A stretch of DNA of 64,000 nucleotides from an uncultured Bacteroidales bacterium (GTDB lineage Bacteria > Bacteroidota > Bacteroidia > Bacteroidales > CAIXZF01), in the NCBI GenBank assembly GCA_964605655.1, contig CAZSDK010000020.1:6974-70973 (forward strand), read 5' to 3'. The notes below the pieces were generated by a model. It worked only from the letters and a program-made list of their open reading frames with translations. It ran no database searches and was not told where the DNA came from. Made by a program: the position numbers and the translations under genes. Within the stretch, counting starts at the first letter, position 1, and each line of letters opens with the position of its first letter. This document shows positions 4,206 to 51,930 of the stretch, one piece after another.

Positions 4206-7200
4206 TTAGCGGGTGACTACCATTTTCTTTACGATCTTTTTCTGGTCGAAGATCACGTAATAATAATACACTCCTGGTTGCCATTTATCAGTTTCCAGGG
4301 TGATCAGATGTTCTCCTTCCGTGAGTTTCTTTTCCATTCTCCAGATCGACTGCCCGAGGGTATTCAGGACTTCAAACCTGAGATCACCGGCTTTTGGGAG
4401 GTTCACCATAATGTCAGTCCTGCCTTCGGTCGGATTGGGCATGTTTTGGGAGACATAGAATTGGTCAGTAGCATTTTCAGGAAGCCACAGATAGAGTTCT
4501 TCCAGTTTGGAGCACAGGGTGTCGTTCTTACGATATCCGTCATCCCCAAAGTCGGAAAAGGCACACAGGTAATAATAACCCAGGTAATCGTATGCGTATC
4601 TGTGTTGAAAATCATACTGAACTGAATCTCCTGGATCCAAAGCCGGGTTAAGGCTCAACAACTCATTCACCACGAGCATGGTGTCTGCTATGGTGTATCC
4701 GACAGGAATTTCAGTGACCGGATTCAGTCCCACATTTTTTATCATCACCTTAACGGTAGTGGAGTCTCCGTGAATGGTCTGGTTGATGGGGTTAATGATA
4801 CGGCTCACCAGTATGTCAAAATCAGGGGATATGGCGATCAGGCTGCTGCAGCTGGTATCGTTGTTGAAATAGGTGTCAAGCGGCAGATCAGTGAAGGCAC
4901 AGAGGTAATAATTGGTGAGAGGTGCAGGATAAGGAGGGAAGGTGTAGTTGACCGAATTATCAGGGTACAGCGTGCCGGTCCAGTTACCCACATTCACTGT
5001 GACTCCGTTGATCTGGTATTTCACTGGTATGGTGTACAGGGTGTCGGTACCAAAATTCTTGATCCTGACCGTTACCAGGATATCAGTTCCATACGTGGTT
5101 TGGCCTACAGGCTGTATGATGGATGTCACCCCTGCATCTTTCGGGATCTTGGGTGAGGTAAGTCTGAAGTCATCGATAGCCCATCCTGCAGCCACTGTAT
5201 TGGGGTATATTACGGTAAAAGTGAAACGGAATTGGGTCGGTTGGGCAAAGTCAGTGATCACTGTAAGGTCGTAAGCTGATTTGTGCCATCCGGGGACGCC
5301 ACCATTGCCACTCCAGCCGACGATGTTGTTGGTGTACCAGTTTACGGCAAAAGGATCGCCCATCCATCCCAGTTTTTTCCACCCTGTGGTACTCAGGTAT
5401 TCGATCATTCCTCCGTCATCAGCCTGAGTCTCAACCCAATGATAAAATGTCAACGAATCATAACCGGAAGTAACAAAATCAAACATGGGGGAATAGAGGA
5501 AGTCCAACTGTCCGGTCCGGATATAGTTTCCGTCCAGGTTGGTTTTCCAGCAGAAAGGAGGTGAAAGAGCGTAATTAATGTTACTGTTCGTCGGAAGTCC
5601 GTGTTCCCACTGGGTGCCAATGGGGTACCAGTAAGAAAGGGTAGAGTCAAAGCTGTCCTCGTAGGGTGGAATAAACGTAGGTATACCAAAAAGATTGATC
5701 TTGGTAGTGTCATTCAGATGGTTCTGTTCATTCAGCAGGTCGGAATATACGGTGAGTGTATAGTTTCCTTCAGGCACGCTGTATGGATTGGTGAACTGGT
5801 ATAAGGTGGAGGCTCCGGGGTTCAGGGTTCCGAGCCAGGTTTCCACGGTTGGTACCATGTTGTTGATCTTATATTTGATATCCACCTGGTGGAGGGTGTC
5901 GCTGCCGAAGTTCACCAGCCTGACCAGGGGTGCCTGCTGGGTGAAGGCAACAGCCGTTCCGATAGGTGAAAGGATGGAATCCACGCCGGCATCGTTGGGA
6001 TAGGGTACGGTGATCTGGAAATCGTCGATAGCCATTCCATTGTAGATTCCCGAGCCATCGCTGTTGAAGAGGAACCGGAATCTCATGGTGCCGGCCATAT
6101 TGAAATTGGAGAGGAGATAAGTCGCCTTGATCCAGCCATTAGAATTACCTGCCCAGGCAGGCTGGTTGGTGCTGTAAATCGTGTTGGTGTACCAGTTGAT
6201 GCCCAGCGGATCACCGACCGATCCCAGCAAATTCCAGGTGATCCCTCCGTCAAGGCTATATTCCAGCCTTGTACCATCGTAATAAAATTCGGTGTTATAA
6301 TTCATCCAGAAGGAGAGCTTGGCATTGATCGCAGTGGTAAAGTCAAAGATCTGGGTGGTGAGTATACAATTGGCGTTGTTAGTATATCCGCCCGAAATAT
6401 TGAGGTTGGTCGCCCAGACATCGGGTGCGGAATGGGCCGTGGCGGGGAATCCTGCTGTGGGTGCACCGTGGATCCAGTTGGTGCCAGTCGATGAAGATGC
6501 CGTAAATTTGACCACTCCGTCAAAATTGTCATAATAGGGAAGACTGTCAACCGGAACACCGATAACCGTTTTGCAAAGGGTGTCGTTGTAAGAATTGGAA
6601 TCGTTTAAAAGCACGACCCAGGCACAAACATTATGAGTGCCCGTGGGCCAGGTTATAGCGGGGAAGATGATATTTGCCGTTGTATTGGTCGGAATGGGAG
6701 TGTTATAAGCAAGATTTACCGTAGGGTTGTTGTCCAGGCGGTAGAAAACATGAAGGCTGTCTATTGCGTTGAGCCCTACGTTTTTTATGATCACTTCACA
6801 AGGTGTGGTGGTGCCCTGGGGGTAGGAAACCGCAGGAGTTACAATGTTGGTCATGGCAGCATCAAAGGGCAGCTGCGGCATGATCATGGCATTGTAGTCT
6901 TCAGTCTCTCCGTAATTATAGATTCCGCATGGGTGAACATCAAGCAGGGAGTATGTCTGGTTCAGCACCACCCTGAAGCGTGTCAGCCCAAGATGAGCCG
7001 TAACAGGGACAGCGATCACCCCGGTGAAGTTGGTATTGGAGGAGGTGGTTGGTCCTCCCGAGAATGCTGTTTCGGTGGCTTCATCAAAAACCCCGTCGTA
7101 ATTCCAGTCAATGAAGACCTTGGCATAGCAGGTCACATGAGAAGACTGGTAGATGGTCTTAATGGTGATATTATAGGTCTGGCCACGGGATAAGACAACA

Positions 7201-15346: not shown

Positions 15347-15868
15347 TTGAAAATGAAAAGGTTAAATTATTTGATCGCAGGAACATTGGTATTTGGATAC
15401 CTTATTGTTTTCCTTGGTTCTACAGAGGTTGTTGCACAGGAAAGAGGCCGGGGTGGCAGAGGGAACCTCCCGGAACACAGATATTGCAGAAATGCCCCTG
15501 ACTCAGCCGAAATGGCCGGGCCGGTAAAGATGCACAGGATCCCCGACCTGACGAAAGAACAGTCGGAAAAAATGGAAAAGATCCAGCTCAGTCTTCATAA
15601 AGAAATGCTTCCCTTGAAAAACCAACTGGAAGAAAAGAAAGCCCACTTGCGGACGCTCAGCTCCGCTGACAAACCGGACCAGGCTGCCATCAACCAGACC
15701 ATTGATGAGATTTCACTGCTGAAAGCTTCCATGATGAAGAAGAAAAACGCTGCGCATCAGGAGATCAGGGCGCTGCTTACCGATAAGCAGAGAGTTCTTT
15801 TTGACTCAAGACAAGGTAAAAAGGGAAAGGGAAGGAATGGCGGTATGGGTGGCCGTGGAGGGTGGTAG
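15347..15868 (+). CDS. Periplasmic Spy/CpxP-family chaperone-like protein
   Basis: Signal peptide, two LTXXQ motifs (DLTKEQSEKM, LLTDKQRVLF) and a G/R-rich tail (GKGRNGGMGGRGGW). Confidence 0.7.
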   Translation: MKMKRLNYLIAGTLVFGYLIVFLGSTEVVAQERGRGGRGNLPEHRYCRNAPDSAEMAGPVKMHRIPDLTKEQSEKMEKIQLSLHKEMLPLKNQLEEKKAHLRTLSSADKPDQAAINQTIDEISLLKASMMKKKNAAHQEIRALLTDKQRVLFDSRQGKKGKGRNGGMGGRGGW

Positions 15869-15957
15869 TCAGCAGTCGGCAGTCAGCGGTCGGCAGTGTG
15901 CAGTTGGCAGTTGGCAGTAAAGCAGTTGGCAGTTGCCAGTTGGCAGTTGGCAGTCGG
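15869..15957. repeat. Heptad tandem array (CAGTYRG / GGCAGTY)n, about 12-13 units
   Basis: Read directly: cagtcgg cagtcag cggtcgg cagtgtg cagttgg cagttgg cagtaaag cagttgg cagttgc cagttgg cagttgg cagtcgg. It starts one nucleotide after the stop codon of 15347..15868. Confidence 0.9.
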
Positions 15958-16094
15958 CCACTTCTGATCTCTGGGTTCTCGGTTCGCAATTTGACATTAT
16001 AATTTCGTAAATCAAGCTCATTTTTATTTTCACCGCAGAGCCGCGAAGGCGCGGAGAAGGGGAAGTAGTCTGCAGTCAGCAGCCGGCAGTAAAG

Positions 16095-16161
16095 CAGTGT
16101 ACCAGTTAATCAGTGTACCAGTTAATCAGTGTACCAGTTAATCAATGTACCAGTGTATCAG
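16095..16161. repeat. 16-bp tandem repeat cagtgtaccagttaat x4.2
   Basis: Three perfect units (16095-16142), one variant unit caatgtaccagtgtat, and a partial unit. Confidence 0.95.
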
Positions 16162-16201
16162 ATGAATAGCCTTCTTGCATCCTTGCCTTCTGGCCTTCTG
16201 G

Positions 16202-16245
16202 CCATCTTACCTTATCAAACATCCCTGCGTCTCTGCGGTAAAAAA
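16202..16245. repeat. Conserved core of a dispersed intergenic element (copy A)
   Basis: ccatcttaccttatcaaacatccctgcgtctctgcggtaaaaa matches 46709..46761 (ccatcttgccttatcgaacatccct[ctgcgacccg]gcgtctctgcggtgaaaa) apart from 3 substitutions and one ~10-nt insertion. Its 3' part is the inverted complement of ttttcaccgcagag at 16027-16040. Confidence 0.85.
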
Positions 16246-16437
16246 TCCTCTTTATCTGTCGGGATGACGGGATGCGGGATGATTGCACGTGGGTACGTTA
16301 TGACGTGAGATCGTATGCACGTTATGGGCCTGATATTCTGGGCAATAGGATCTGGTAGATGAAAGGAATAAGGAAAAGTAGCAGGTAATAATATAAAGTA
16401 ATAGTATGAAGTAAAAGAGGACTGTCCGTTCCGCGGT

Positions 16438-29267: not shown

Positions 29268-29311
29268 AGCCGAGGGACTCCATCCCCTTAAGGGGATGGA
29301 GTCCCTCGGCT
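29268..29311 (+). terminator. Perfect 44-bp palindrome (22-bp stem) followed by a T-rich tract; intrinsic terminator of the aminotransferase gene
   Basis: agccgagggactccatcccctt|aaggggatggagtccctcggct, followed by aattatttt. It starts 11 nt after the stop codon. Confidence 0.75.
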
Positions 29312-29424
29312 AATTATTTTGGCCCCTTAAGGGGATTGAGTCCCTCTGCTAATTATTTTGGCCCCTTAAGGGGATGGAGTCCCTCTGCTATTTTTTTTGG
29401 CCCCCTCAGGGGGATTGAGTCCCT
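29284..29424. repeat. 39-bp tandem repeat x3.6, each unit carrying the palindromic core CCCCTTAAGGGG
   Basis: Units begin at 29284, 29323 and 29362, with a partial unit at 29401. The unit is ccccttaaggggatKgagtccctcKgctaattattttgg. The array fills the gap between the convergent aminotransferase and aspS genes. Confidence 0.9.
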
Positions 29425-42624: not shown

Positions 42625-43443
42625 ATGATGCTGATTGACACCCACGCCCATTTGTATCTGGATGATTATAAGGATGACCGCGATTTGATGGTCCGGAGAG
42701 CCCTGGATGAGGGAGTCAGGTATATGCTGCTGCCCCGTATCGACAGCAGGACCCACCAGGCGATGATGTCGATGGCAGCACAGTTCCCTGACTCCTGCCT
42801 TCCTATGATGGGCCTTCATCCCACCAGCGTGAAGGAAGACTGGGAGTCGGAACTTGCCCTGGTGGAGGAAGGGCTCAAATCAGGCTCATACTGTGCTGTC
42901 GGCGAGGTGGGCATCGACCTGTACTGGGACCAGACCTACCGTAAAGAGCAGGAGAAGGTTTTCGTTAAGGAGATGGAATGGTCGTTGATGTATGGACTGC
43001 CCCTGGTGATCCATACTCGTAATTCACTTGAAATCACCATCGCCCTGATCAAGGATTTCAATGATCGTCGTCTGACCGGCGTTTTTCATTGTTTCCCCGG
43101 CACGGAGGAACAGGCTGAGGAGGTGATCGGGATGAGATTTATGCTGGGCATCGGAGGCGTGGTGTCCTACAAGAATTCTCAGATGTCGAAAGTGGTGGAA
43201 GCCATTCCGTTGGAACACCTCGTCCTGGAGACCGATGCCCCTTTTCTTTCCCCTCACCCCAAAAGAGGCATGAGAAATGAGAGTGCTTTTGTTGCTTATG
43301 TGGCCCGAAAAATAGCCGAGATCAAAAACACCGGCCCCGAAGAGGTAGCCGGGGTCACTACTGATAATGCCTTAAGATTATTTCCTTCGATTAACCTCCG
43401 AAACCCGCCACCTTACGGGACTCCGCAAAGACCTTTGCATTAA
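42625..43443 (+). CDS. tatD: TatD-family metal-dependent hydrolase/DNase
   Basis: [39 protein letters not shown]. The 3' end overlaps convergent sdhB by 53 nt. Confidence 0.9.
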
Positions 43444-44164
43444 TGAACTGACGGTTTAGCCTGGCGATATTGGTGAGTTTGATTTCTTTCGGACACTCGG
43501 CTTCGCAGGCACCGGTATTGGTACAGTTGCCAAATCCTTCTTCATCCATGGTCCTGACCATATTCTGAACCCTTTCCACGGCCTCAGGCATCCCCTGTGG
43601 CAGCAACACCAACTGCGATACCTTGGCACTTACGAACAACATGGCCGAAGCATTCTTACAGGCTGCCACGCAGGCCCCGCAACCGATACAGGCTGCGGCA
43701 TCCATTGCCAGATCAGATGAGTATTTAGGAACAGGGATGGCATTGGCATCCTGGGCCCCGCCGGTGTTCACCGAAGTATATCCTCCTGACTGAATGATCC
43801 GGTCAAAGGCAGAGCGGTCTACCATCAGGTCCTTGATTACCGGGAAAGCTCTTGAACGCCAGGGTTCAATCACCACGGTCTGTCCGTCCCTGAAATTCCG
43901 CATGTGCATCTGGCACACCGTGATGGCCTTGTCAGGGCCGTGAGGTCTTCCATTGATATACAGGCTGCACATGCCGCAGATGCCCTCCCTGCAGTCATGG
44001 TCGAAAACAACGGGATCTTCTCCTTTGTACACAAGCTTCTCATTCAGGATGTCCAGCATCTCCAGGAAAGAACAGTTGGGTGAGATATCATCGAGGTGAT
44101 AGGTTTCAAACCTTCCTTTGGAATGGTGGTCTTTTTGTCTCCAGATCTTTAACTTCAGCTTCAT
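43391..44164 (-). CDS. sdhB: Succinate dehydrogenase/fumarate reductase iron-sulfur subunit
   Basis: 257 aa. 2Fe-2S Cys cluster ([15 protein letters not shown]), then 4Fe-4S and 3Fe-4S clusters ([11 protein letters not shown]; [12 protein letters not shown]). Confidence 0.9.
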
Positions 44165-44206
44165 GGATGGTTATTTTTCAATGATCATCAACAAGTTCAA
44201 TGACAA

Positions 44207-46144
44207 CTATTTATAATTTCTTTGTTTCACCTCGATAAATTCATAATCGAGGGATTCTTTATGGAGAAGGTGTTGGTCGCTGCCCTGGTATTCCCAGGCT
44301 GCGACATATTTGAAATCCTCGTCGTTTCTGAGGGCTTCACCGTCAGGGGTCTGGTACTCCTCCCTGAAATGTCCGCCGCAGCTTTCTTTACGATTGAGGG
44401 CATCCATGGCTATCAGCTCGCCCAGTTCCAGGAAGTCGGCCACCCTGCATGCCTTCTCCAGCTCGGTGTTCAGGCTGTCAGGCGTGCCGGGGATAAACAC
44501 ATCTTTCCAGAATTCCTCCCTGAGTTCCCTGATCAGGGTGATGCCTTTCTTCAGTCCTGTTTCATTTCTTCCCATACCAACATATTCCCACATGATCTTG
44601 CCAAGTTTCTTGTGGAAATGGTCGACAGAGTTCTTTCCTTTCACATTCATGAGCTTCTGGATGTGTTCGGCCACGTCTTTTTCCGTCTGTTCGAACTCGG
44701 GCAGGTCGGTTTTCATCCGGGGCACTTTGATCTGGTCGGAGAGATAATTTTGGATCGTGAAGGGGATGACAAAAAATCCGTCGGCCAGTCCCTGCATCAG
44801 GGCGGAAGCGCCGAGCCTGTTGGCACCGTGATCGCTGAAGTTGGCTTCTCCCAGCACAAACAGGCCAGGGATGGTCGTCTGCAGCTCATAGTCCACCCAG
44901 ATGCCGCCCATAGTGTAATGCACGGCAGGGTAAATCATCATCGGGGTCTCATAAGGGTTCTCGTCGACGATCTTCTCATACATCTGGAAAAGGTTGCCAT
45001 AACGTTCCTCGATCACATTCTTTCCTAAACGGGCAATGGATTCCGAGAAGTCGAGGAAGACGGCCAGACCGGTTTCCCCAACGCCAAAGCCGGCGTCGCA
45101 TCTTTCTTTGGCGGCCCTGGAGGCCACATCCCTGGGGACGAGGTTCCCAAAGGCAGGATAACGGCGTTCCAGGTAGTAATCACGATCTTCTTCTTTTATC
45201 TGGTTCGGTCTGAGCTTACCATGACGGAGAGCCTCGGCGTCGGCCAGGTTTTTGGGGACCCAGATACGGCCGTCGTTGCGGAGGCTCTCGCTCATCAGGG
45301 TGAGTTTAGACTGGTAGTCACCATGTACAGGGATGCAGGTGGGATGGATCTGGGTGAAACAGGGATTTCCGAAGAAAGCACCTTTTTTATAGGCCTGCCA
45401 GATCGCACTTGCGTTCGATCCCATCGCGTTGGTGGACAGGAAAAACACATTCCCGTAGCCTCCGGTGGCCAATACCACGGCATGGGCAAAATGCCGCTCC
45501 AGCTTCCCGGTGACCAGGTTACGGGTGATGATTCCCCTGGCCTTACCGTCGACCACCACCAGGTCCTGCATCTCCTGGCGATAGTACAGTTTTACCGTAC
45601 CCTTCTTGATCTGGCGGCTCAGTGATCCGTAGGCACCCAGCAGCAACTGCTGTCCTGTCTGCCCCCTGGCATAAAAGGTACGGGAGACCTGAGCCCCTCC
45701 GAAGGAACGGTTATCGAGTAATCCGCCGTAGTCACGGGCAAAAGGCACACCCTGGGCCACACAATGGTCGATGATCAGGTTGCTGACCTCGGCCAGACGG
45801 TAGACATTGGCTTCCCTGGCCCGGTAATCGCCTCCTTTTATGGTGTCATAAAAGAGACGGTAAATGCTGTCCCCGTCATTCTGGTAGTTCTTGGCTGCAT
45901 TGATCCCCCCCTGGGCAGCGATGCTGTGTGCCCGCCGCGGACTGTCCTGATAGCAGAAGTTCTTGACATTGAATCCAAGCTCACCCAGACTGGCTGCCGC
46001 TCCTGCACCGGCAAGACCGGTGCCGACAACGATAATATCCAGCTTTCTTTTGTTAGATGGGTTGACCAGGTTCTGGTGGGATTTAAAATACGACCACTTC
46101 TGTTCCAGTGGCCCTGCAGGAATCTTCGGATCTAAACGCGACAT
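44207..46144 (-). CDS. sdhA: Succinate dehydrogenase/fumarate reductase flavoprotein subunit
   Basis: 645 aa. FAD dinucleotide fold [18 protein letters not shown], the covalent-FAD His region [14 protein letters not shown], and [10 protein letters not shown]. Confidence 0.9.
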
Positions 46145-46172
46145 AGATTTGGTATAAAGACTTTAGTACCCT

Positions 46173-46180
46173 CAAAAATA
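46173..46180 (-). promoter_or_regulatory. -7 promoter box (minus-strand tatttttg) directly upstream of sdhA
   Basis: Plus-strand caaaaata, 29 nt upstream of the sdhA ATG. Confidence 0.45.
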
Positions 46181-46305
46181 AATATTAATCATGTTGACCG
46201 GATGGGTTTCCATCCAGAAATTGCATGAGGACAGGCTTAAATAGAATAGGTATAAATAATGGTCTGGGCAGCGAGGTGAAATCAGCAGGATGAAAACGGT
46301 TAGTC

Positions 46306-46349
46306 GGGATGCGGGATGCGGGATGCGGATGCGGGATGCGGGATGCGGG
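46306..46349 (+). repeat. Heptad tandem array (GGGATGC)n, 6 units; canonical G-quadruplex-forming pattern
   Basis: gggatgc gggatgc gggatgc ggatgc gggatgc gggatgc ggg. These are G3 tracts separated by 4-nt loops. Confidence 0.9.
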
Positions 46350-46509
46350 ATAGTTCCAGTGGGCAGTCAGCAGTCAGCAGTCGGTGGGCAGTGAAGTCCA
46401 TGTCGTTATATTTCAAGGTTATACATTATCAATTATCAACTATTAATTATCAACTTTTACCTCGTAGAGGTTATCTACCTGTAGCAAAGAGTCAGCCGGT
46501 TGAATATTT

Positions 46510-46559
46510 CCCCTCCCCGTTATCATCCCAATCGAAGAAACAACCTTTGTGGGGAGGGG
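46510..46559. other. Hairpin with a 9-bp C/G stem (cccctcccc ... ggggagggg) and a 32-nt loop
   Basis: Read directly. It lies inside the 1.2-kb non-coding stretch. Confidence 0.7.
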
Positions 46560-46652
46560 CGAGAGGAGGGTAAGACTGGAATTCTAATATTCACTAAATC
46601 AGTGAGATGAATTCTGTTAGATGAAAGCTGGCAGTATAAGCAGTTGGCAACC

Positions 46653-46676
46653 GGGAAACGGGATTCGGGATACGGG
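46653..46676 (+). repeat. Second heptad G-tract array (gggaaac gggattc gggatac ggg); G-quadruplex motif
   Basis: Four G3 tracts with three 4-nt loops, period 7. Confidence 0.85.
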
Positions 46677-46708
46677 ATGGCAATTCATTCTTGCATTCTC
46701 CCTTCTTG

Positions 46709-46761
46709 CCATCTTGCCTTATCGAACATCCCTCTGCGACCCGGCGTCTCTGCGGTGAAAA
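46709..46761. repeat. Conserved core of the dispersed intergenic element (copy B)
   Basis: It matches 16202..16245 (see that feature). Its 3' part, ctctgcggtgaaaa (46748-46761), is the inverted complement of tttttaccgcagag at 46810-46823. Confidence 0.85.
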
Positions 46762-47055
46762 GGACGATAATTAGTGGTTCCTCAACATTCATGGGTTTCA
46801 TAGAAGTATTTTTTTACCGCAGAGAAACAGAGACGCAGAGTTTTTCTGCATCTGTCTTGATAAAAATATCGTTTCTCAGTCTTCTTTTCACCACTTGAGG
46901 CACTTAAGGTGTTGTGAATGTGAATCTTATTGTGGGAGTCAATCACTAACAGCTGCTTTACAATCATTGCACTGACCACTAACCTGGCAACCTTTGAGGG
47001 AGCTCTCATTAAGGGATTGAGGCTCCGGCGGTGAAAAGCGCACAAGGCATCCCCG

Positions 47056-47208
47056 GGGATGCTTGGTGGCCAGTACCACCCAACGGTTGTCCTTTTGGAG
47101 TTTTATCTCGAAGTCTGTCTTGAACTCCTCTATTTTCAGCTGGTTTTGTAGGTTATATCTTATCCTAAGTGCACGGGTTATTGCATATAAATTACGAATT
47201 ATATGCAA
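47056..47208 (-). pseudogene. Possible 5' remnant of an IS transposase gene (DUF772/InsH-N-like N-terminus)
   Basis: The 89-aa ORF begins ...IRYNLQNQLKIEEFKTDFEIKLQKDNRWVVLATKHP. This resembles, from memory only, the N-terminal pattern (..NRWV.LA..IPW) of a Bacteroidetes IS5-like transposase family. The rest of the ORF is unlike a transposase and there is no DDE domain. Confidence 0.25.
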
Positions 47209-47367
47209 GTATTTTTAAATATACTCGCTATATGTTATTAATAATCAGATTTATATGAATCTTTACTGTGCCCTATTTAGACTATTTATTAATTACTGTA
47301 ATCAAAAAGTTTTAGCTGATAAAATTTACTATTGTTATAAATTTGTTTATTAAAGTCAGACCTTCTA

Positions 47368-48948
47368 ATGACTCTTATCAAATTGCAAATGAGTTATCCT
47401 GAGGCAAATACCAGTAAACATATAAAGAGTATTATATTTATATTTGTATTTTCATCTTTGTTAATGATAGCATCTGGTCAAAATAGTCCCGATGCCAAGA
47501 GAGATTATGTCTGGGTGTTTGGGAATAATTATTATGCTCCTTGCAATACTGAATATAAACTTGATTTCAATAATTATCCTGATATTGTTTCCGGATTCAC
47601 ACACACTATTCATCTTGATCTGAATAATGCTTCTATTTGCGATACGAATGGTTCTTTACTTTTTTTTACCAATGGACAGGAGGTCGTCGACAGGTTAGGG
47701 AATATCATGCCTAATGGTGATTCACTTACCTATACAGACTTTTATCAGTATCTTAATCAGTTCAATTTAGGGCCCTGGTGGCCACAGTCAGTACTTATTC
47801 TTCCAAATCCGGTCTTTAATAACATATACTATATCTTACATCTTCGTATTGAGTGGCTTAATGGAATCACCGGGGAAGGGCCTGTGGCAACCGGACTTAT
47901 GATGAGTACTGTTGATATGACCCTTCATGACGGTTTTGGAGATGTCATCAGCAAAAACCAGTTACTCATCGATGACACCTTATTTAATGGAATGAACGCC
48001 ACAAGACATGGAAATGGCAGGGACTGGTGGATTATTGCCCCAACCAGAACAACAGGGATTTGTTATAAGTTACTTTTGGATCCCGAAGGAGTACACATCA
48101 TTGAATCTCCACCAAACAATAATTTCAATAATACAGTCTACACGCCATATACTGTGATGTCGCCGGATGGGAGCAAGTTCATTTATACCGGACATGGTTC
48201 AAATCATCCTGTTTACTGCTATAGTTTCGACCGTTGTCTTGGTACGATGAATGAAATTGAAAATTTCACTGTTCCGGATGATTATTTTGGATATAGCGTA
48301 TCCGTCTCTTCAAATTCTCAATATCTATATTTAATAAGTGAAATGCATATTTATCAATTTGATCTTACGGTTTCTCCCATTGCAAGCAGTAAAATACTTG
48401 TAGCTGTTTATGATGGATATAGCCCTACCTATAATCCTCCTGCTTTTAGTTTTTCACAATTAGGCCCGGATAATAAAATTTATATAGGTGCTGGCAATTC
48501 CACTTTTATTCATGTTATTGAGAATCCTGATTTAGAAGGAATGAACTGTAATGTTGTACAACGAGCTCTCACTATGCCAGGTTGCAGTCTTTACGGCTCT
48601 ATGCCAAAACTGCCTAACTTTCGGCTTGGGAGTTTGGTAGGATCCGACTGTGATAGTTTAATTACTAGTGCAATAGAAACCTCAAAAAGTTCCGCAGGTA
48701 AAATAACCTTCGCCCCCAATCCGGCAAACGACTATATCCGCTTTGATTTCAGTGAATTAACCACGAATCATCCTATGCAGTTTTTCATTAGTGACGACCT
48801 TGGAAGAGAGATGGATATGTTGAATATTGCACCATTCCAGGGTTTTTTCAACTACGATGTTAGAAAGTTAGCTGATGGATTATACATTGGTTTATTGAAA
48901 AACCAGAATGGAATGTTAGGAAAGGTCAAGTTCATAGTGAATAAATAG
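47368..48948 (+). CDS. Low-GC T9SS cargo protein of unknown function (beta-propeller-like) with a type A C-terminal sorting domain
   Basis: 526 aa with a signal-anchor. Repeated blade-like motifs (ICDTNGSLLFFTNG, HGNGRDWWII, SPDGSKFIYTG, LGPDNKIYIG). C-terminal tail FAPNPANDYIRFDF...DGLYIGLLKNQNGMLGKVKFIVNK. Sampled 60-nt lines give about 23-32% GC, against about 47% in neighbouring genes. Confidence 0.75.
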   Translation: MTLIKLQMSYPEANTSKHIKSIIFIFVFSSLLMIASGQNSPDAKRDYVWVFGNNYYAPCNTEYKLDFNNYPDIVSGFTHTIHLDLNNASICDTNGSLLFFTNGQEVVDRLGNIMPNGDSLTYTDFYQYLNQFNLGPWWPQSVLILPNPVFNNIYYILHLRIEWLNGITGEGPVATGLMMSTVDMTLHDGFGDVISKNQLLIDDTLFNGMNATRHGNGRDWWIIAPTRTTGICYKLLLDPEGVHIIESPPNNNFNNTVYTPYTVMSPDGSKFIYTGHGSNHPVYCYSFDRCLGTMNEIENFTVPDDYFGYSVSVSSNSQYLYLISEMHIYQFDLTVSPIASSKILVAVYDGYSPTYNPPAFSFSQLGPDNKIYIGAGNSTFIHVIENPDLEGMNCNVVQRALTMPGCSLYGSMPKLPNFRLGSLVGSDCDSLITSAIETSKSSAGKITFAPNPANDYIRFDFSELTTNHPMQFFISDDLGREMDMLNIAPFQGFFNYDVRKLADGLYIGLLKNQNGMLGKVKFIVNK

Positions 48949-50954: not shown

Positions 50955-51087
50955 TTTTCTTCCCTCCGGCAGCAGAATTCTTTGACGGATGAATAACCAT
51001 GTAAATCATATCGATCGTTAATTTGCAGTATTTTCGTTCATTCATGCAAAGTTACAAATCAGACAGCTTTCACCTAAATTTCCACTT

Positions 51088-51930
51088 ATGTCAGATGGTG
51101 TATCAGACTTTTATGAGGATATTTCCTTTTTCGATGAGCTTCCCTTCTGGTCAGCTCCTTTCGGGATTGAATTGCTGAAACATTTGAAATTCAGGAAGTT
51201 TATTCAGGTCCTTGACATCGGTCCCGGTACCGGATTTCCCCTGCTGGAAGCAGCGCAACGGCTGGGCCCCACCTGCACGGTTTTCGGACTGGAGCCCTGG
51301 CAGGAGGCCAGGACCAGGATGCTCGACAAGATCAGGAATTACCGGATTAAGAATGTGGTTGTAATGAACGGGGAAGCAGAAGACATGCCATTTGAGGATG
51401 GTACCTTCAGTTGCATTCTGTCCAACAACGGCCTGAACAATGTGAAGGACATCGATCAGGTGTTGAGGGAGTGTTACCGGGTTACCAGACCGGGAGCCCA
51501 GTTGCTCTTTACCTGCAACCTGCCCGGGACCATGGCAGAATTCTACCAGGTCCTGGAGGATGTCTTAAGCCGGCACCAGGGTATGGTGGGTAATGGCGGG
51601 GTGGAGGATATTAAAAGGAAGATACAGACCCATATTCGGGAAAAAAGAAAAGAAGCCGGAGAATGGGCATCCCTGGTGGAAAAGCACGGGTTCCGGGTGG
51701 AGGATATCCGGGAAGAGGCCTTCAGTTATGGTTTTGCTGACGGGACCAGTCTTTTAAATTATCATTTTATCCGCCTGGCCTTTTTCCCCTCCTGGCAGGA
51801 ATTAATCCCGGAAGCATACAGAGTGGAGGTTTTCAGCGAAGTGGAAAAACAACTCAATGATACGGCCGCAGAAAAGGGGGCAGTGTCACTGACGGTTCCT
51901 TTTGCCTGCTATGATTGCAGCAGGAAATGA
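51088..51930 (+). CDS. Class I SAM-dependent methyltransferase
   Basis: Motif I VLDIGPGTGFPLLEAA, post-I and motif II regions (FEDGTFSCILSNNGLNNV; RVTRPGAQLLF). Confidence 0.8.
   Translation: MSDGVSDFYEDISFFDELPFWSAPFGIELLKHLKFRKFIQVLDIGPGTGFPLLEAAQRLGPTCTVFGLEPWQEARTRMLDKIRNYRIKNVVVMNGEAEDMPFEDGTFSCILSNNGLNNVKDIDQVLRECYRVTRPGAQLLFTCNLPGTMAEFYQVLEDVLSRHQGMVGNGGVEDIKRKIQTHIREKRKEAGEWASLVEKHGFRVEDIREEAFSYGFADGTSLLNYHFIRLAFFPSWQELIPEAYRVEVFSEVEKQLNDTAAEKGAVSLTVPFACYDCSRK

Follow-up and report, generated by a model that had tools for sequence, protein, structure and literature searches.

What kind of element fills the spacer upstream of sdhA in an uncultured Bacteroidales bacterium? The stretch of DNA analyzed here (the window; 64,000 nucleotides) corresponds to positions 6974 to 70973 of contig C20 in a 48-contig assembly of 3.39 Mb and 48% G+C, designated G000. 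Within it, a 1,223-bp divergent spacer between sdhA and a gene whose product has a type IX secretion system (T9SS) sorting tail is occupied by a patchwork of short repeats, island B; a second patchwork, island A, takes up the whole 569-bp convergent spacer between a gene of the LTXXQ family and anmK. A preliminary description had noted a core and a set of modules common to the two islands and had proposed a dispersed element family, either resembling miniature inverted-repeat transposable elements (MITEs) or repetitive extragenic palindromic (REP) sequences or serving as a recombination or regulatory site. The results presented here suggest that both islands are noncoding accretions of a lineage-specific mosaic repeat family, similar in kind to bacterial interspersed mosaic elements (BIMEs) and BOX elements, that is probably selfish or neutral.

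A dispersed family with a fixed module order

All nine modules listed for island B in the preliminary description were found in place, with the inverted partner lying 49 rather than 48 nt downstream. The likeness between the cores of islands A and B is real: the local alignment scored 69 (z = 21), compared with 21.9 ± 2.2 (maximum, 32) in 300 dinucleotide shuffles, and the best alignment ran from the CT-rich run through the core to the CTCTGCGGTRAAAA end. Nor is the genome limited to two copies without boundaries. The 25-nt core is present in six copies at two or fewer mismatches, and a genome-wide search that also scored the K-C(-T) context (modules are defined below) yielded nine copies. Each of these nine core copies consists of array-CCTTATCRAACATCC fused to the right arm of a CGCAGAG-octamer hairpin.

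To survey the family, G000 was scanned for ten modules: G (CGGGATR), Q/q (GGCAGTN/CAGCAGT), P (ACCAGTRT), W (ATTATCA), K (CCTTCTTG), C (CTTATCRAACATCC), T (CTCYGCGGTRAAA), S (CACTTAAG words), and X (a 113-bp core). Gene calls in G000 were crude open reading frame (ORF) calls. The scan identified 94 clusters with at least two modules and 41 islands with at least three. Tandem Repeats Finder (TRF) detected 185 period-7 and 150 period-8 arrays, dominated by a few words (the top period-7 units were AATTATC, with 26 arrays; ATCCCGC, with 18; and ACGGGAT, with 10). Arrays ranged from 3 to about 18 units (median, 4), and 103 of the 114 arrays of at least three units lay outside long ORFs. The proposal of a dispersed family with a common vocabulary and tandem modules of variable length is thus borne out.

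The family is more structured than had been recognized, with a fixed order of modules and a common orientation. Adjacent directional modules were co-oriented in 123 of 147 pairs (p = 3e-17), and pairwise order was strongly biased (Q>W, 10:1; W>X, 8:0; Q>P, 7:1; P>W, 5:0; K>C, 6:0; C>T, 5:0; G>K, 5:0), which sums to G>Q>P>W>X and G/Q/P>K>C>T. The modules group into two composite units, G-Q-(P)-W-X (unit 1) and (G/Q/P)-K-C-T (unit 2); S or gaYgataatWagtggtt often comes directly after unit 2. Island B reads as unit 1 (46305-46570), unit 2 (46630-46779), a T left arm, S words, and a degenerate GGTGAAAAG end. The 3' boundaries are sharp, falling after GCGGTRAAA plus gaYgataatWagtggtt, and the 5' boundaries are fuzzy, with array length varying there; in aligned copies the 5' boundary dissolves into the arrays. 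When 14 X copies and 9 K-C-T copies were aligned with their flanks, neither flank duplications nor terminal inverted repeats were found, so the copies do not conform to MITEs, and no target-site duplication or terminal inverted repeat delimits the island as a whole.

Nearly all islands are intergenic. Of the 41, 39 lie between ORFs, and the other two look like spurious module matches. The 39 islands flanked by two genes are distributed over convergent (14), divergent (10), and tandem (15) spacers, compared with 16%, 16%, and 69% genome-wide; islands are therefore enriched between operons, and many arrays abut stop codons. Island orientation relative to the flanking genes was random (8 versus 7), and the G000 islands showed no association of orientation with GC skew or local gene strand. 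The earlier idea of a regulatory or recombination site found no support, given this lack of orientation bias and the absence of the islands from the orthologous spacers of relatives.

Two further dispersed segments were seen beside X. A module of about 111 bp, Y (taagttagacaggaccttccc...ctcatctacagat), follows X in several copies (C1:103305-103415, C8:12512-12623, and C1:42140-42251), and an upstream segment of about 100 bp is common to three X copies, where it replaces the heptad arrays. Scaffold gaps of 100 N lie in or beside word arrays and hairpin repeats at C11:12050-12149, C14 at approximately 50999-51098, C2:148960-149058, and C15:63885-63983. Overall, 4 of 13 N-runs (within 60 nt) and 7 of 96 contig ends (within 150 nt) are near modules, and array lengths at N-gap sites are not reliable from the assembly.

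The islands are absent from relatives

Next, the same loci were compared in related genomes. The LTXXQ-family gene and anmK are also convergent neighbors in G003 (same genus) and in G005 and G006 (same family), where the spacer measures about 5 to 60 bp as opposed to 569 bp in G000. Similarly, the spacer upstream of sdhA is about 190 to 390 bp long and free of heptads in five relatives, compared with 1,223 bp in G000. Arrays of the G word numbered 70 in G000 and 0 in 40 relatives (reversed control in G000, 0). No match to X was found in the relatives' genomes, a collection of species genomes, or metagenome contigs; with W array plus X as the query, only the W part was matched in the relatives, and in few of them (G006, G021, and G028). 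The composite C+T pattern was absent from 185,579 species genomes and from metagenome contigs. As judged by these sequence comparisons, the islands appear to be a lineage-specific gain.

A locus in same-genus G002 (C21, 1360-1530) has an architecture like that of island B built from other words: a (CATTCT)n array runs straight into a T right arm, ctgcgtctactgcggttaaaa, and a T left arm, ttttcaccgcagaggcgcaaagacgcagag, lies about 70 nt beyond.

Element X and the Y1 transposase genes

The islands combine at least three repeat systems with different histories: the word arrays, X, and the K-C-T core with its T arm. The preliminary view of a single MITE- or REP-like element with termini does not fit island B, which juxtaposes at least three systems of very different taxonomic range. 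BLAST of island B against G000 set apart positions 46428-46573 (the ATTATCA array and the C4TC4/G4AG4 hairpin) as a separate dispersed repeat. The 113-bp core of this repeat, X, has 13 copies at 82 to 96% identity, in G000 only, and a W array stood ahead of X in all eight ordered cases. X carries two GTAG tetranucleotides within the bipartite motif CTCGTAGAG-N8-CCTGTAGC, followed by a 9-bp C4TC4/G4AG4 stem.

This motif had 11 exact matches in G000, 9 in X copies and 2 at a Y1 transposase gene on contig C10, where it is present once per side in the same orientation; there were no matches in the 40 relatives or in reversed controls. The local alignment of X with the C10 Y1 flank covered about 40 nt, with a score of 27 to 29 compared with 14.3 ± 2.1 for shuffles. 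G000 has three Y1_Tnp genes, and similar Y1 genes are present in 29 of 41 genomes of the order. These IS200/RAYT-type genes (C10:107380-108750, C14:107877-109001, and C42:350-496) are each flanked by their own REP-like hairpin repeats, which are local only. Apart from the approximately 40 nt common to the 5' end of X, the C10 flanking units are not dispersed, and no island modules were found near any of the three genes. The check for a linked tyrosine transposase suggested earlier thus yielded a lead for X alone, whose 5' motif flanks the C10 gene, and none for the 45-bp core.

The Y1 proteins scored 34 and 24 bits against the NCBIfam model REP_Tyr_transpos (cutoff, 80), which leaves them outside the REP-associated tyrosine transposase (RAYT) clade, and 74 and 82 bits against the IS200/IS605 model (cutoff, 55), which they pass. 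The nearest homologue of the C10 protein among relatives is 58% identical. Because X shares the flanking motif of the C10 gene, it may be moved by that transposase; we regard it as an even call whether X is a passenger like REPs or palindrome-associated transposable elements (PATEs), perhaps mobilized in trans by the C10 enzyme.

Words shared with the arms of small genes

The G and Q words also make up the inverted arms around Avd-like four-helix-bundle (PF05635) genes of G000. The PF05635 family is similar to Avd, a protein of diversity-generating retroelements (PMC10053308). G000 has four PF05635 genes, three of them flanked by word repeats (Table 1), and inverted word arrays bracket a small gene at C5:44774, C11:12403, C2:149233, and C16:98780. 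In islands A and B, the G and Q arrays are direct rather than inverted, and only the T arms are inverted. Islands A and B therefore share parts with these cassettes, which resemble intervening sequences, but are not members of them.

The T module, together with the related S, represents one arm of a word hairpin, with rows of CGCAGAG-type octamers ending in GGTGAAA. In G000, 19 loci together carry about 29 copies of the CTCTGCGGTRAAA/GCGYCTCTGCGGTRAAA arm, which are often paired in inverted orientation (reversed controls, 0). A 21-nt arm pattern, CTYTGCGYCTCYGCGGTRAAA, was found in at least 120 stretches from many bacterial phyla, compared with about 4 expected by chance according to our estimate. 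The matches listed include Chitinophagaceae, Saprospiraceae, Planctomycetota, Verrucomicrobiota, Acidobacteriota, and Chloroflexota, as well as Cyanobacteria, Nitrospirota, several proteobacterial classes, and others; 19 stretches with the pattern were in IMG/VR viral contigs. The context across phyla is a hairpin of the form (T/C)ACCGC(AGAGRCGC)n - loop - (GCGYCTCT)nGCGGT(G/A)AAA. A literature search for the arm sequence (CGCAGAGACGCAGAG and CGCAGAGGCGCAGAG) found no paper containing it.

Outside G000, such hairpins enclose a gene for a putative nuclease of the GxxExxY type [PD-(D/E)XK], in other phyla and in one relative of the same order, and the T hairpin of G000 is gene-less. T-type arms bracket a GxxExxY gene exactly in an alphaproteobacterial metagenome-assembled genome (L067) and in Auribacterota (L052), and they abut one at a further locus (L109). 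In G035, of the same order, a GxxExxY gene lies inside a 4-kb tandem cluster of T hairpins; this locus (C1:3027258-3030275, continuing to 3032494) has at least 10 hairpins of the CGCAGAG/CTYAGCG type, with the gene within one of them. GxxExxY genes are present in 30 of 41 relatives' genomes, many T arms are present in only 3 of the 41, and no PF05635 genes were found near T arms at the 120 loci in other phyla.

Within G000, the GxxExxY gene at C16:98780 sits inside inverted arms of the CACNAATT word, and S hairpins stand on both sides of a GxxExxY gene fragment at C15:64115. There are 12 copies of the S element in G000, and the ends TTTTCACC/GGTGAAAA are common to S and T. Near-identical segments of about 0.7 kb with a GxxExxY gene were also noted at C2:10990-11900 and C13:50700-51330; at C2, copies of a direct repeat of about 48 bp, tatggcaccatgatctttccgctgaggtgaacaccttgggttgcg, border the segment and resemble either a target duplication or a host sequence that was split.

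Folding and coding potential

In island B, the two T arms pair in a 15-bp stem (fold z = -2.7). The fold of X is weak (z = -1.2), its copies have mismatches in the C4TC4/G4AG4 stem and no compensatory changes, and the G/Q region of island B does not fold. Across the whole window, there were no Rfam matches at the gathering score, and positions 46100-47400 gave chance-level matches only (E = 0.45 and 3.8); no tRNA or tmRNA was found.

A decayed gene in islands A and B was considered and rejected, since six-frame pieces compared with the PF05635 and GxxExxY proteins of G000 all gave E values above 0.8. No Pfam matches were obtained for the small ORFs at 46316-46573, 46644-46898, 46782-47045, and 46939-47208. 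A remnant of a lost sdhC in island B was ruled out by an intact b558-family sdhC at C19:33627-34262. The sdhA-sdhB region (43391-47367) has no adjacent cytochrome b gene, and because five relatives likewise lack sdhC beside sdhA, the separation of the two is a family trait and not a loss caused by island B. The T9SS sorting tail and the b558-type sdhC mark the organism as a member of Bacteroidota.

Features of the two islands and their surroundings

Coordinates are collected in Table 1. The island A counterpart of ggcagtataagcagttggca in island B is ggcagtaaagcagttggca (15913-15931). The island A T left arm pairs with 16227-16245, and the loop between them consists of q, Q, P, K, and C modules. 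The ttttcacc end of the island B S words pairs with ggtgaaaag at 47030-47038. The outer flank of the island B T right arm, gacgataattagtggtt, was found again at C18:74160 and on C13 and C15. Elsewhere in the window, a 39-bp tandem repeat (29284-29424; 3.6 copies, 91% match, unit CCCCTTAAGGGGATGGAGTCCCTCTGCTAATTATTTTGG) has no relation to the island vocabulary.

Table 1. Positions of island modules, flanking genes, and PF05635 genes (window coordinates unless a contig is named)
Feature	Position	Strand	Composition or remark	Basis
sdhA	44207-46144	minus	FAD_binding_2 and Succ_DH_flav_C	
Gene for protein with T9SS sorting tail	47368-48948	plus		
Island B, G array	46305-46351	plus	(CGGGATG)x6.9, one unit shortened; G3N4 repeat with predicted G-quadruplex potential	TRF
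Island B, Q/q array	~46361-46393	plus	(GCAGTCA/GGCAGTN)n, gcagtcagcagtcagcagtcgg	
Island B, W array	46425-46459	plus	(ATTATCA)n	TRF
Island B, X core	46458-46570	plus	113-bp dispersed element	
Island B, X 5' bipartite motif	46461-46485	plus	CTCGTAGAG-N8-CCTGTAGC	
Island B, X 9-bp stem	46510-46518 with 46551-46559		CCCCTCCCC with GGGGAGGGG (C4TC4/G4AG4)	
Island B, Q fragment	46630-46649	plus	ggcagtataagcagttggca; start of second composite unit	
Island B, second G-type array	46652-46678	plus	(CGGGAWW)x3.9	TRF
Island B, K array	46686-46716	plus	CT-rich octamers, CCTTCTTG/CATTCTTG type	9-copy alignment
Island B, C core	46709-46733	plus	ccatcttgccttatcgaacatccct; first half of the shared core of the preliminary description	
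Island B, T right arm	46734-46779	plus	(ctgcgacc)(cggcgtct)ctgcggtgaaaa plus outer flank gacgataattagtggtt	
Island B, segment within T right arm	46744-46761		gcgtctctgcggtgaaaa	
Island B, T left arm	46809-46840	plus	tttttttACCGCAGAG-AAACAGAG-ACGCAGAG; 15-bp stem with 46747-46761	Fold and arm pattern
Island B, inverted partner	46811-46824		tttttaccgcagag; 49 nt downstream	
Island B, S-type words	46886-46909	plus	ttttcaccACTTGAGGCACTTAAGG	
Island B, degenerate right-arm-like end	47021-47038	plus	ggctccggcggtgaaaag	Fold of 46805-47050, z = -2.66
Island A, Q array	15867-15958	plus	~13 heptads; begins 1 nt past the stop codon of the LTXXQ-family gene	TRF
Island A, T left arm	16027-16062	plus	ttttCACCGCAGAG-CCGCGAAG-GCGCGGAG-aagggg	
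Island A, P-type 16-mer array	16087-16161	plus		TRF
Island A, K array	16169-16207	plus		Alignment
Island A, C core, then T right arm	16202-16245	plus	ccatcttaccttatcaaacatccct, then gcgtctctgcggtaaaaaa	
Island A, G array	16260-16282	plus	(CGGGATGA)x3	TRF
PF05635 gene	C5:44774		(CGGGATR)8 on one side, ~18 inverted units on the other	
PF05635 gene	C11:12403		At least 27 GGCAGTN units; 5 inverted units	
PF05635 gene	C2:149233		Flanked by GAGCCT hexamers	
PF05635 gene	C25		No flanking arrays	

Discussion

BIMEs of enterobacteria and the BOX elements of Streptococcus pneumoniae are noncoding, extragenic, multicopy mosaics with a fixed order of motifs, variable tandem modules, and hairpin potential. 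The G000 islands are likewise multimotif, ordered, extragenic, multicopy, and variable in module number, and they fall into the same functional class. There is no sequence relation, however: the variable modules in G000 are arrays of 7- to 8-nt words rather than REP or boxB units, and the islands combine at least three unrelated repeat systems and number only 41.

The arrays themselves belong with the heptanucleotide long simple sequence repeats (LSSRs) and short tandemly repeated repetitive (STRR) sequences, being intergenic, dispersed, about four units in modal length, and composed of lineage-specific words. They differ in the words used (CGGGATR, GGCAGTN, and ATTATCA) and in being tied by syntax to the nonrepeat cores X and K-C-T. 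The cyanobacterial STRR words presumably match none of CGGGATR, GGCAGTN, ATTATCA, and ACCAGTRT. Other heptanucleotide LSSRs that are intergenic, dispersed tandem heptamers include the cyanobacterial STRR sequences, those surveyed by Mrazek et al. 2007 (summarized in PMC4679880), and TAACTGA repeats (PMC4679880). Quadruplex-forming GGGNATC repeats are found in Xanthomonas and Nostoc (PMC4692102); the G array of G000 is similar in its G3N4 composition, and its quadruplex would be a potential one.

Three further systems resemble parts of the islands. The 23S rRNA intervening sequences of Coxiella and Leptospira have a long stem made partly of tandem heptamers, in strain-variable number, and a loop with a PF05635 (S23p, Avd-like) gene; in those bearing the ORF, Coxiella strains differ in heptamer number, and the stem is cleaved by RNase III (PMC4990558). 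This layout is matched by the C5 and C11 PF05635 genes of G000 with their G and Q words, whereas islands A and B are gene-less, have direct arrays, and lie between protein-coding genes rather than in rRNA. X may be akin to the repeats of REP/REPIN-RAYT systems and to PATEs in that it is short, strand-specific, hairpin-bearing, and intergenic and its GTAG 5' motif flanks a Y1 gene; however, X has only 13 copies, the Y1 protein fits the IS200 model, and the link excludes the core, the arrays, and T. Finally, the cross-phylum pattern of CGCAGAG-armed word hairpins enclosing GxxExxY genes is also seen in the T arms of islands A and B, but in G000 the arm is fused to a species-specific K-C, and the loop of island A holds word arrays, not a gene.

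Together, the findings favor the view, which we consider rather probable, that islands A and B are noncoding accretions of a BIME/BOX-like, lineage-specific mosaic family, selfish or neutral in character. Composite units would have been duplicated as blocks into new intergenic sites, after which the 7- to 8-nt arrays would expand or contract by replication slippage; trans-acting enzymes would serve some of the parts, and the units would presumably be neutral. Several points weigh against this view. No movement of units was seen, and we infer spread and slippage from the copies; no target-site duplications were found among the aligned X and K-C-T copies. The X-Y1 link rests on a similarity of about 40 nt, and the Y1 protein scores as IS200/IS605 rather than as a curated RAYT. 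The hairpin folds are modest (z, -1.2 to -2.7), and the X stem has mismatches instead of compensatory changes. No GxxExxY gene lies within T arms in G000. The fixed syntax and strict co-orientation could mean a functional transcript or a protein-binding landscape, and the near-identity of the T arm across phyla argues that something recognizes T, so that "neutral" may be wrong there.

Several other readings were weighed against the mosaic repeat family. Rather than reflecting mere descent from one master copy, the syntax might be the footprint of undescribed mobile word-hairpin cassettes, with small proteins encoded by the gene-bearing forms recognizing arrays in trans and new units inserting preferentially beside existing arrays; we think this unlikely. 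Under it, the GxxExxY nuclease would serve the CGCAGAG/CACTTAAG-type arms, the Avd-like protein the heptad arms, and the Y1 transposase X, a tentative assignment of partners. Islands A and B would then be landing pads recording successive insertions, and horizontal spread of the system would explain why a near-identical T arm is met in many phyla and in phage contigs.

Alternatively, the islands may be cis-regulatory or posttranscriptional landing pads, where arrays are sites for an RNA- or DNA-binding protein or G3N4 quadruplexes tune sdhAB, the T9SS cargo gene, or transcript ends. Island B does lie between two divergent promoters, strict syntax and polarity could reflect function, and the median of four units equals the four-unit preference of the quadruplex-forming GGGNATC repeats (PMC4692102); a regulatory role has also been proposed for the TAACTGA heptamers of Beggiatoaceae (PMC4679880). 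Yet the flanking genes are functionally unrelated, orientation relative to them is unbiased, many islands occupy convergent spacers, and the words are absent from all 40 relatives, in which the same housekeeping spacers work without arrays. Such a role is quite unlikely.

Improbable, too, is that the composite units are structured noncoding RNA genes with their own promoters, producing small RNAs or RNase III-processed hairpins like excised intervening sequences. The co-orientation of all modules is what a transcription unit would show, T arms make 15-bp stems, and related word hairpins resemble the RNase III-cut 23S rRNA intervening sequences (PMC4990558). However, there was no Rfam match even at E of 5 or less, fold z-scores were weak, the X stem lacked covariation, length varied highly from copy to copy, and the units lack conservation even at the genus level.

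The three Y1_Tnp genes, and the X 5' motif with its two GTAG tetranucleotides beside one of them, could be taken to mean that a single RAYT transposase mobilizes the island in its entirety, as one REP/REPIN- or MITE-type family. We give this little credence: the repeats flanking the Y1 genes are local and not dispersed, with no island module nearby; the K-C-T core and the arrays lack the GTAG-hairpin structure; the island parts differ in taxonomic range; the Y1 proteins are under the curated RAYT cutoff (34 and 24 versus 80 bits); and the island has neither terminal inverted repeats nor target duplications at its ends. It is barely conceivable that the shared vocabulary is an assembly or binning artifact of collapsed or chimeric repeats in a draft genome, since, although modules abut 4 of 13 N-runs and 7 of 96 contig ends and arrays do disturb assembly, dozens of copies are internal to long contigs and have unique coding sequence on either side, the copies differ in substitutions and unit number, and the T hairpin is found independently in hundreds of other assemblies, complete chromosomes included.

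The mosaic repeat family of G000 is thus not a new system; it exemplifies, in well-formed shape, a type of bacterial repeat that is known but still unexplained. Its islands add 0.5 to 1 kb to intergenic spacers, break assemblies, and create spurious ORFs of 80 to 90 amino acids, such as that at 46316-46573. To our knowledge, bacterial heptamer repeats (STRR and LSSR) have gone unexplained for decades. G000 provides a compact, well-defined case, with a strict grammar, words common to the arms of Avd-like genes, and a fused hairpin arm of cross-phylum distribution, and it offers testable partners: a nuclease with the hairpin and a Y1 transposase with the X motif.

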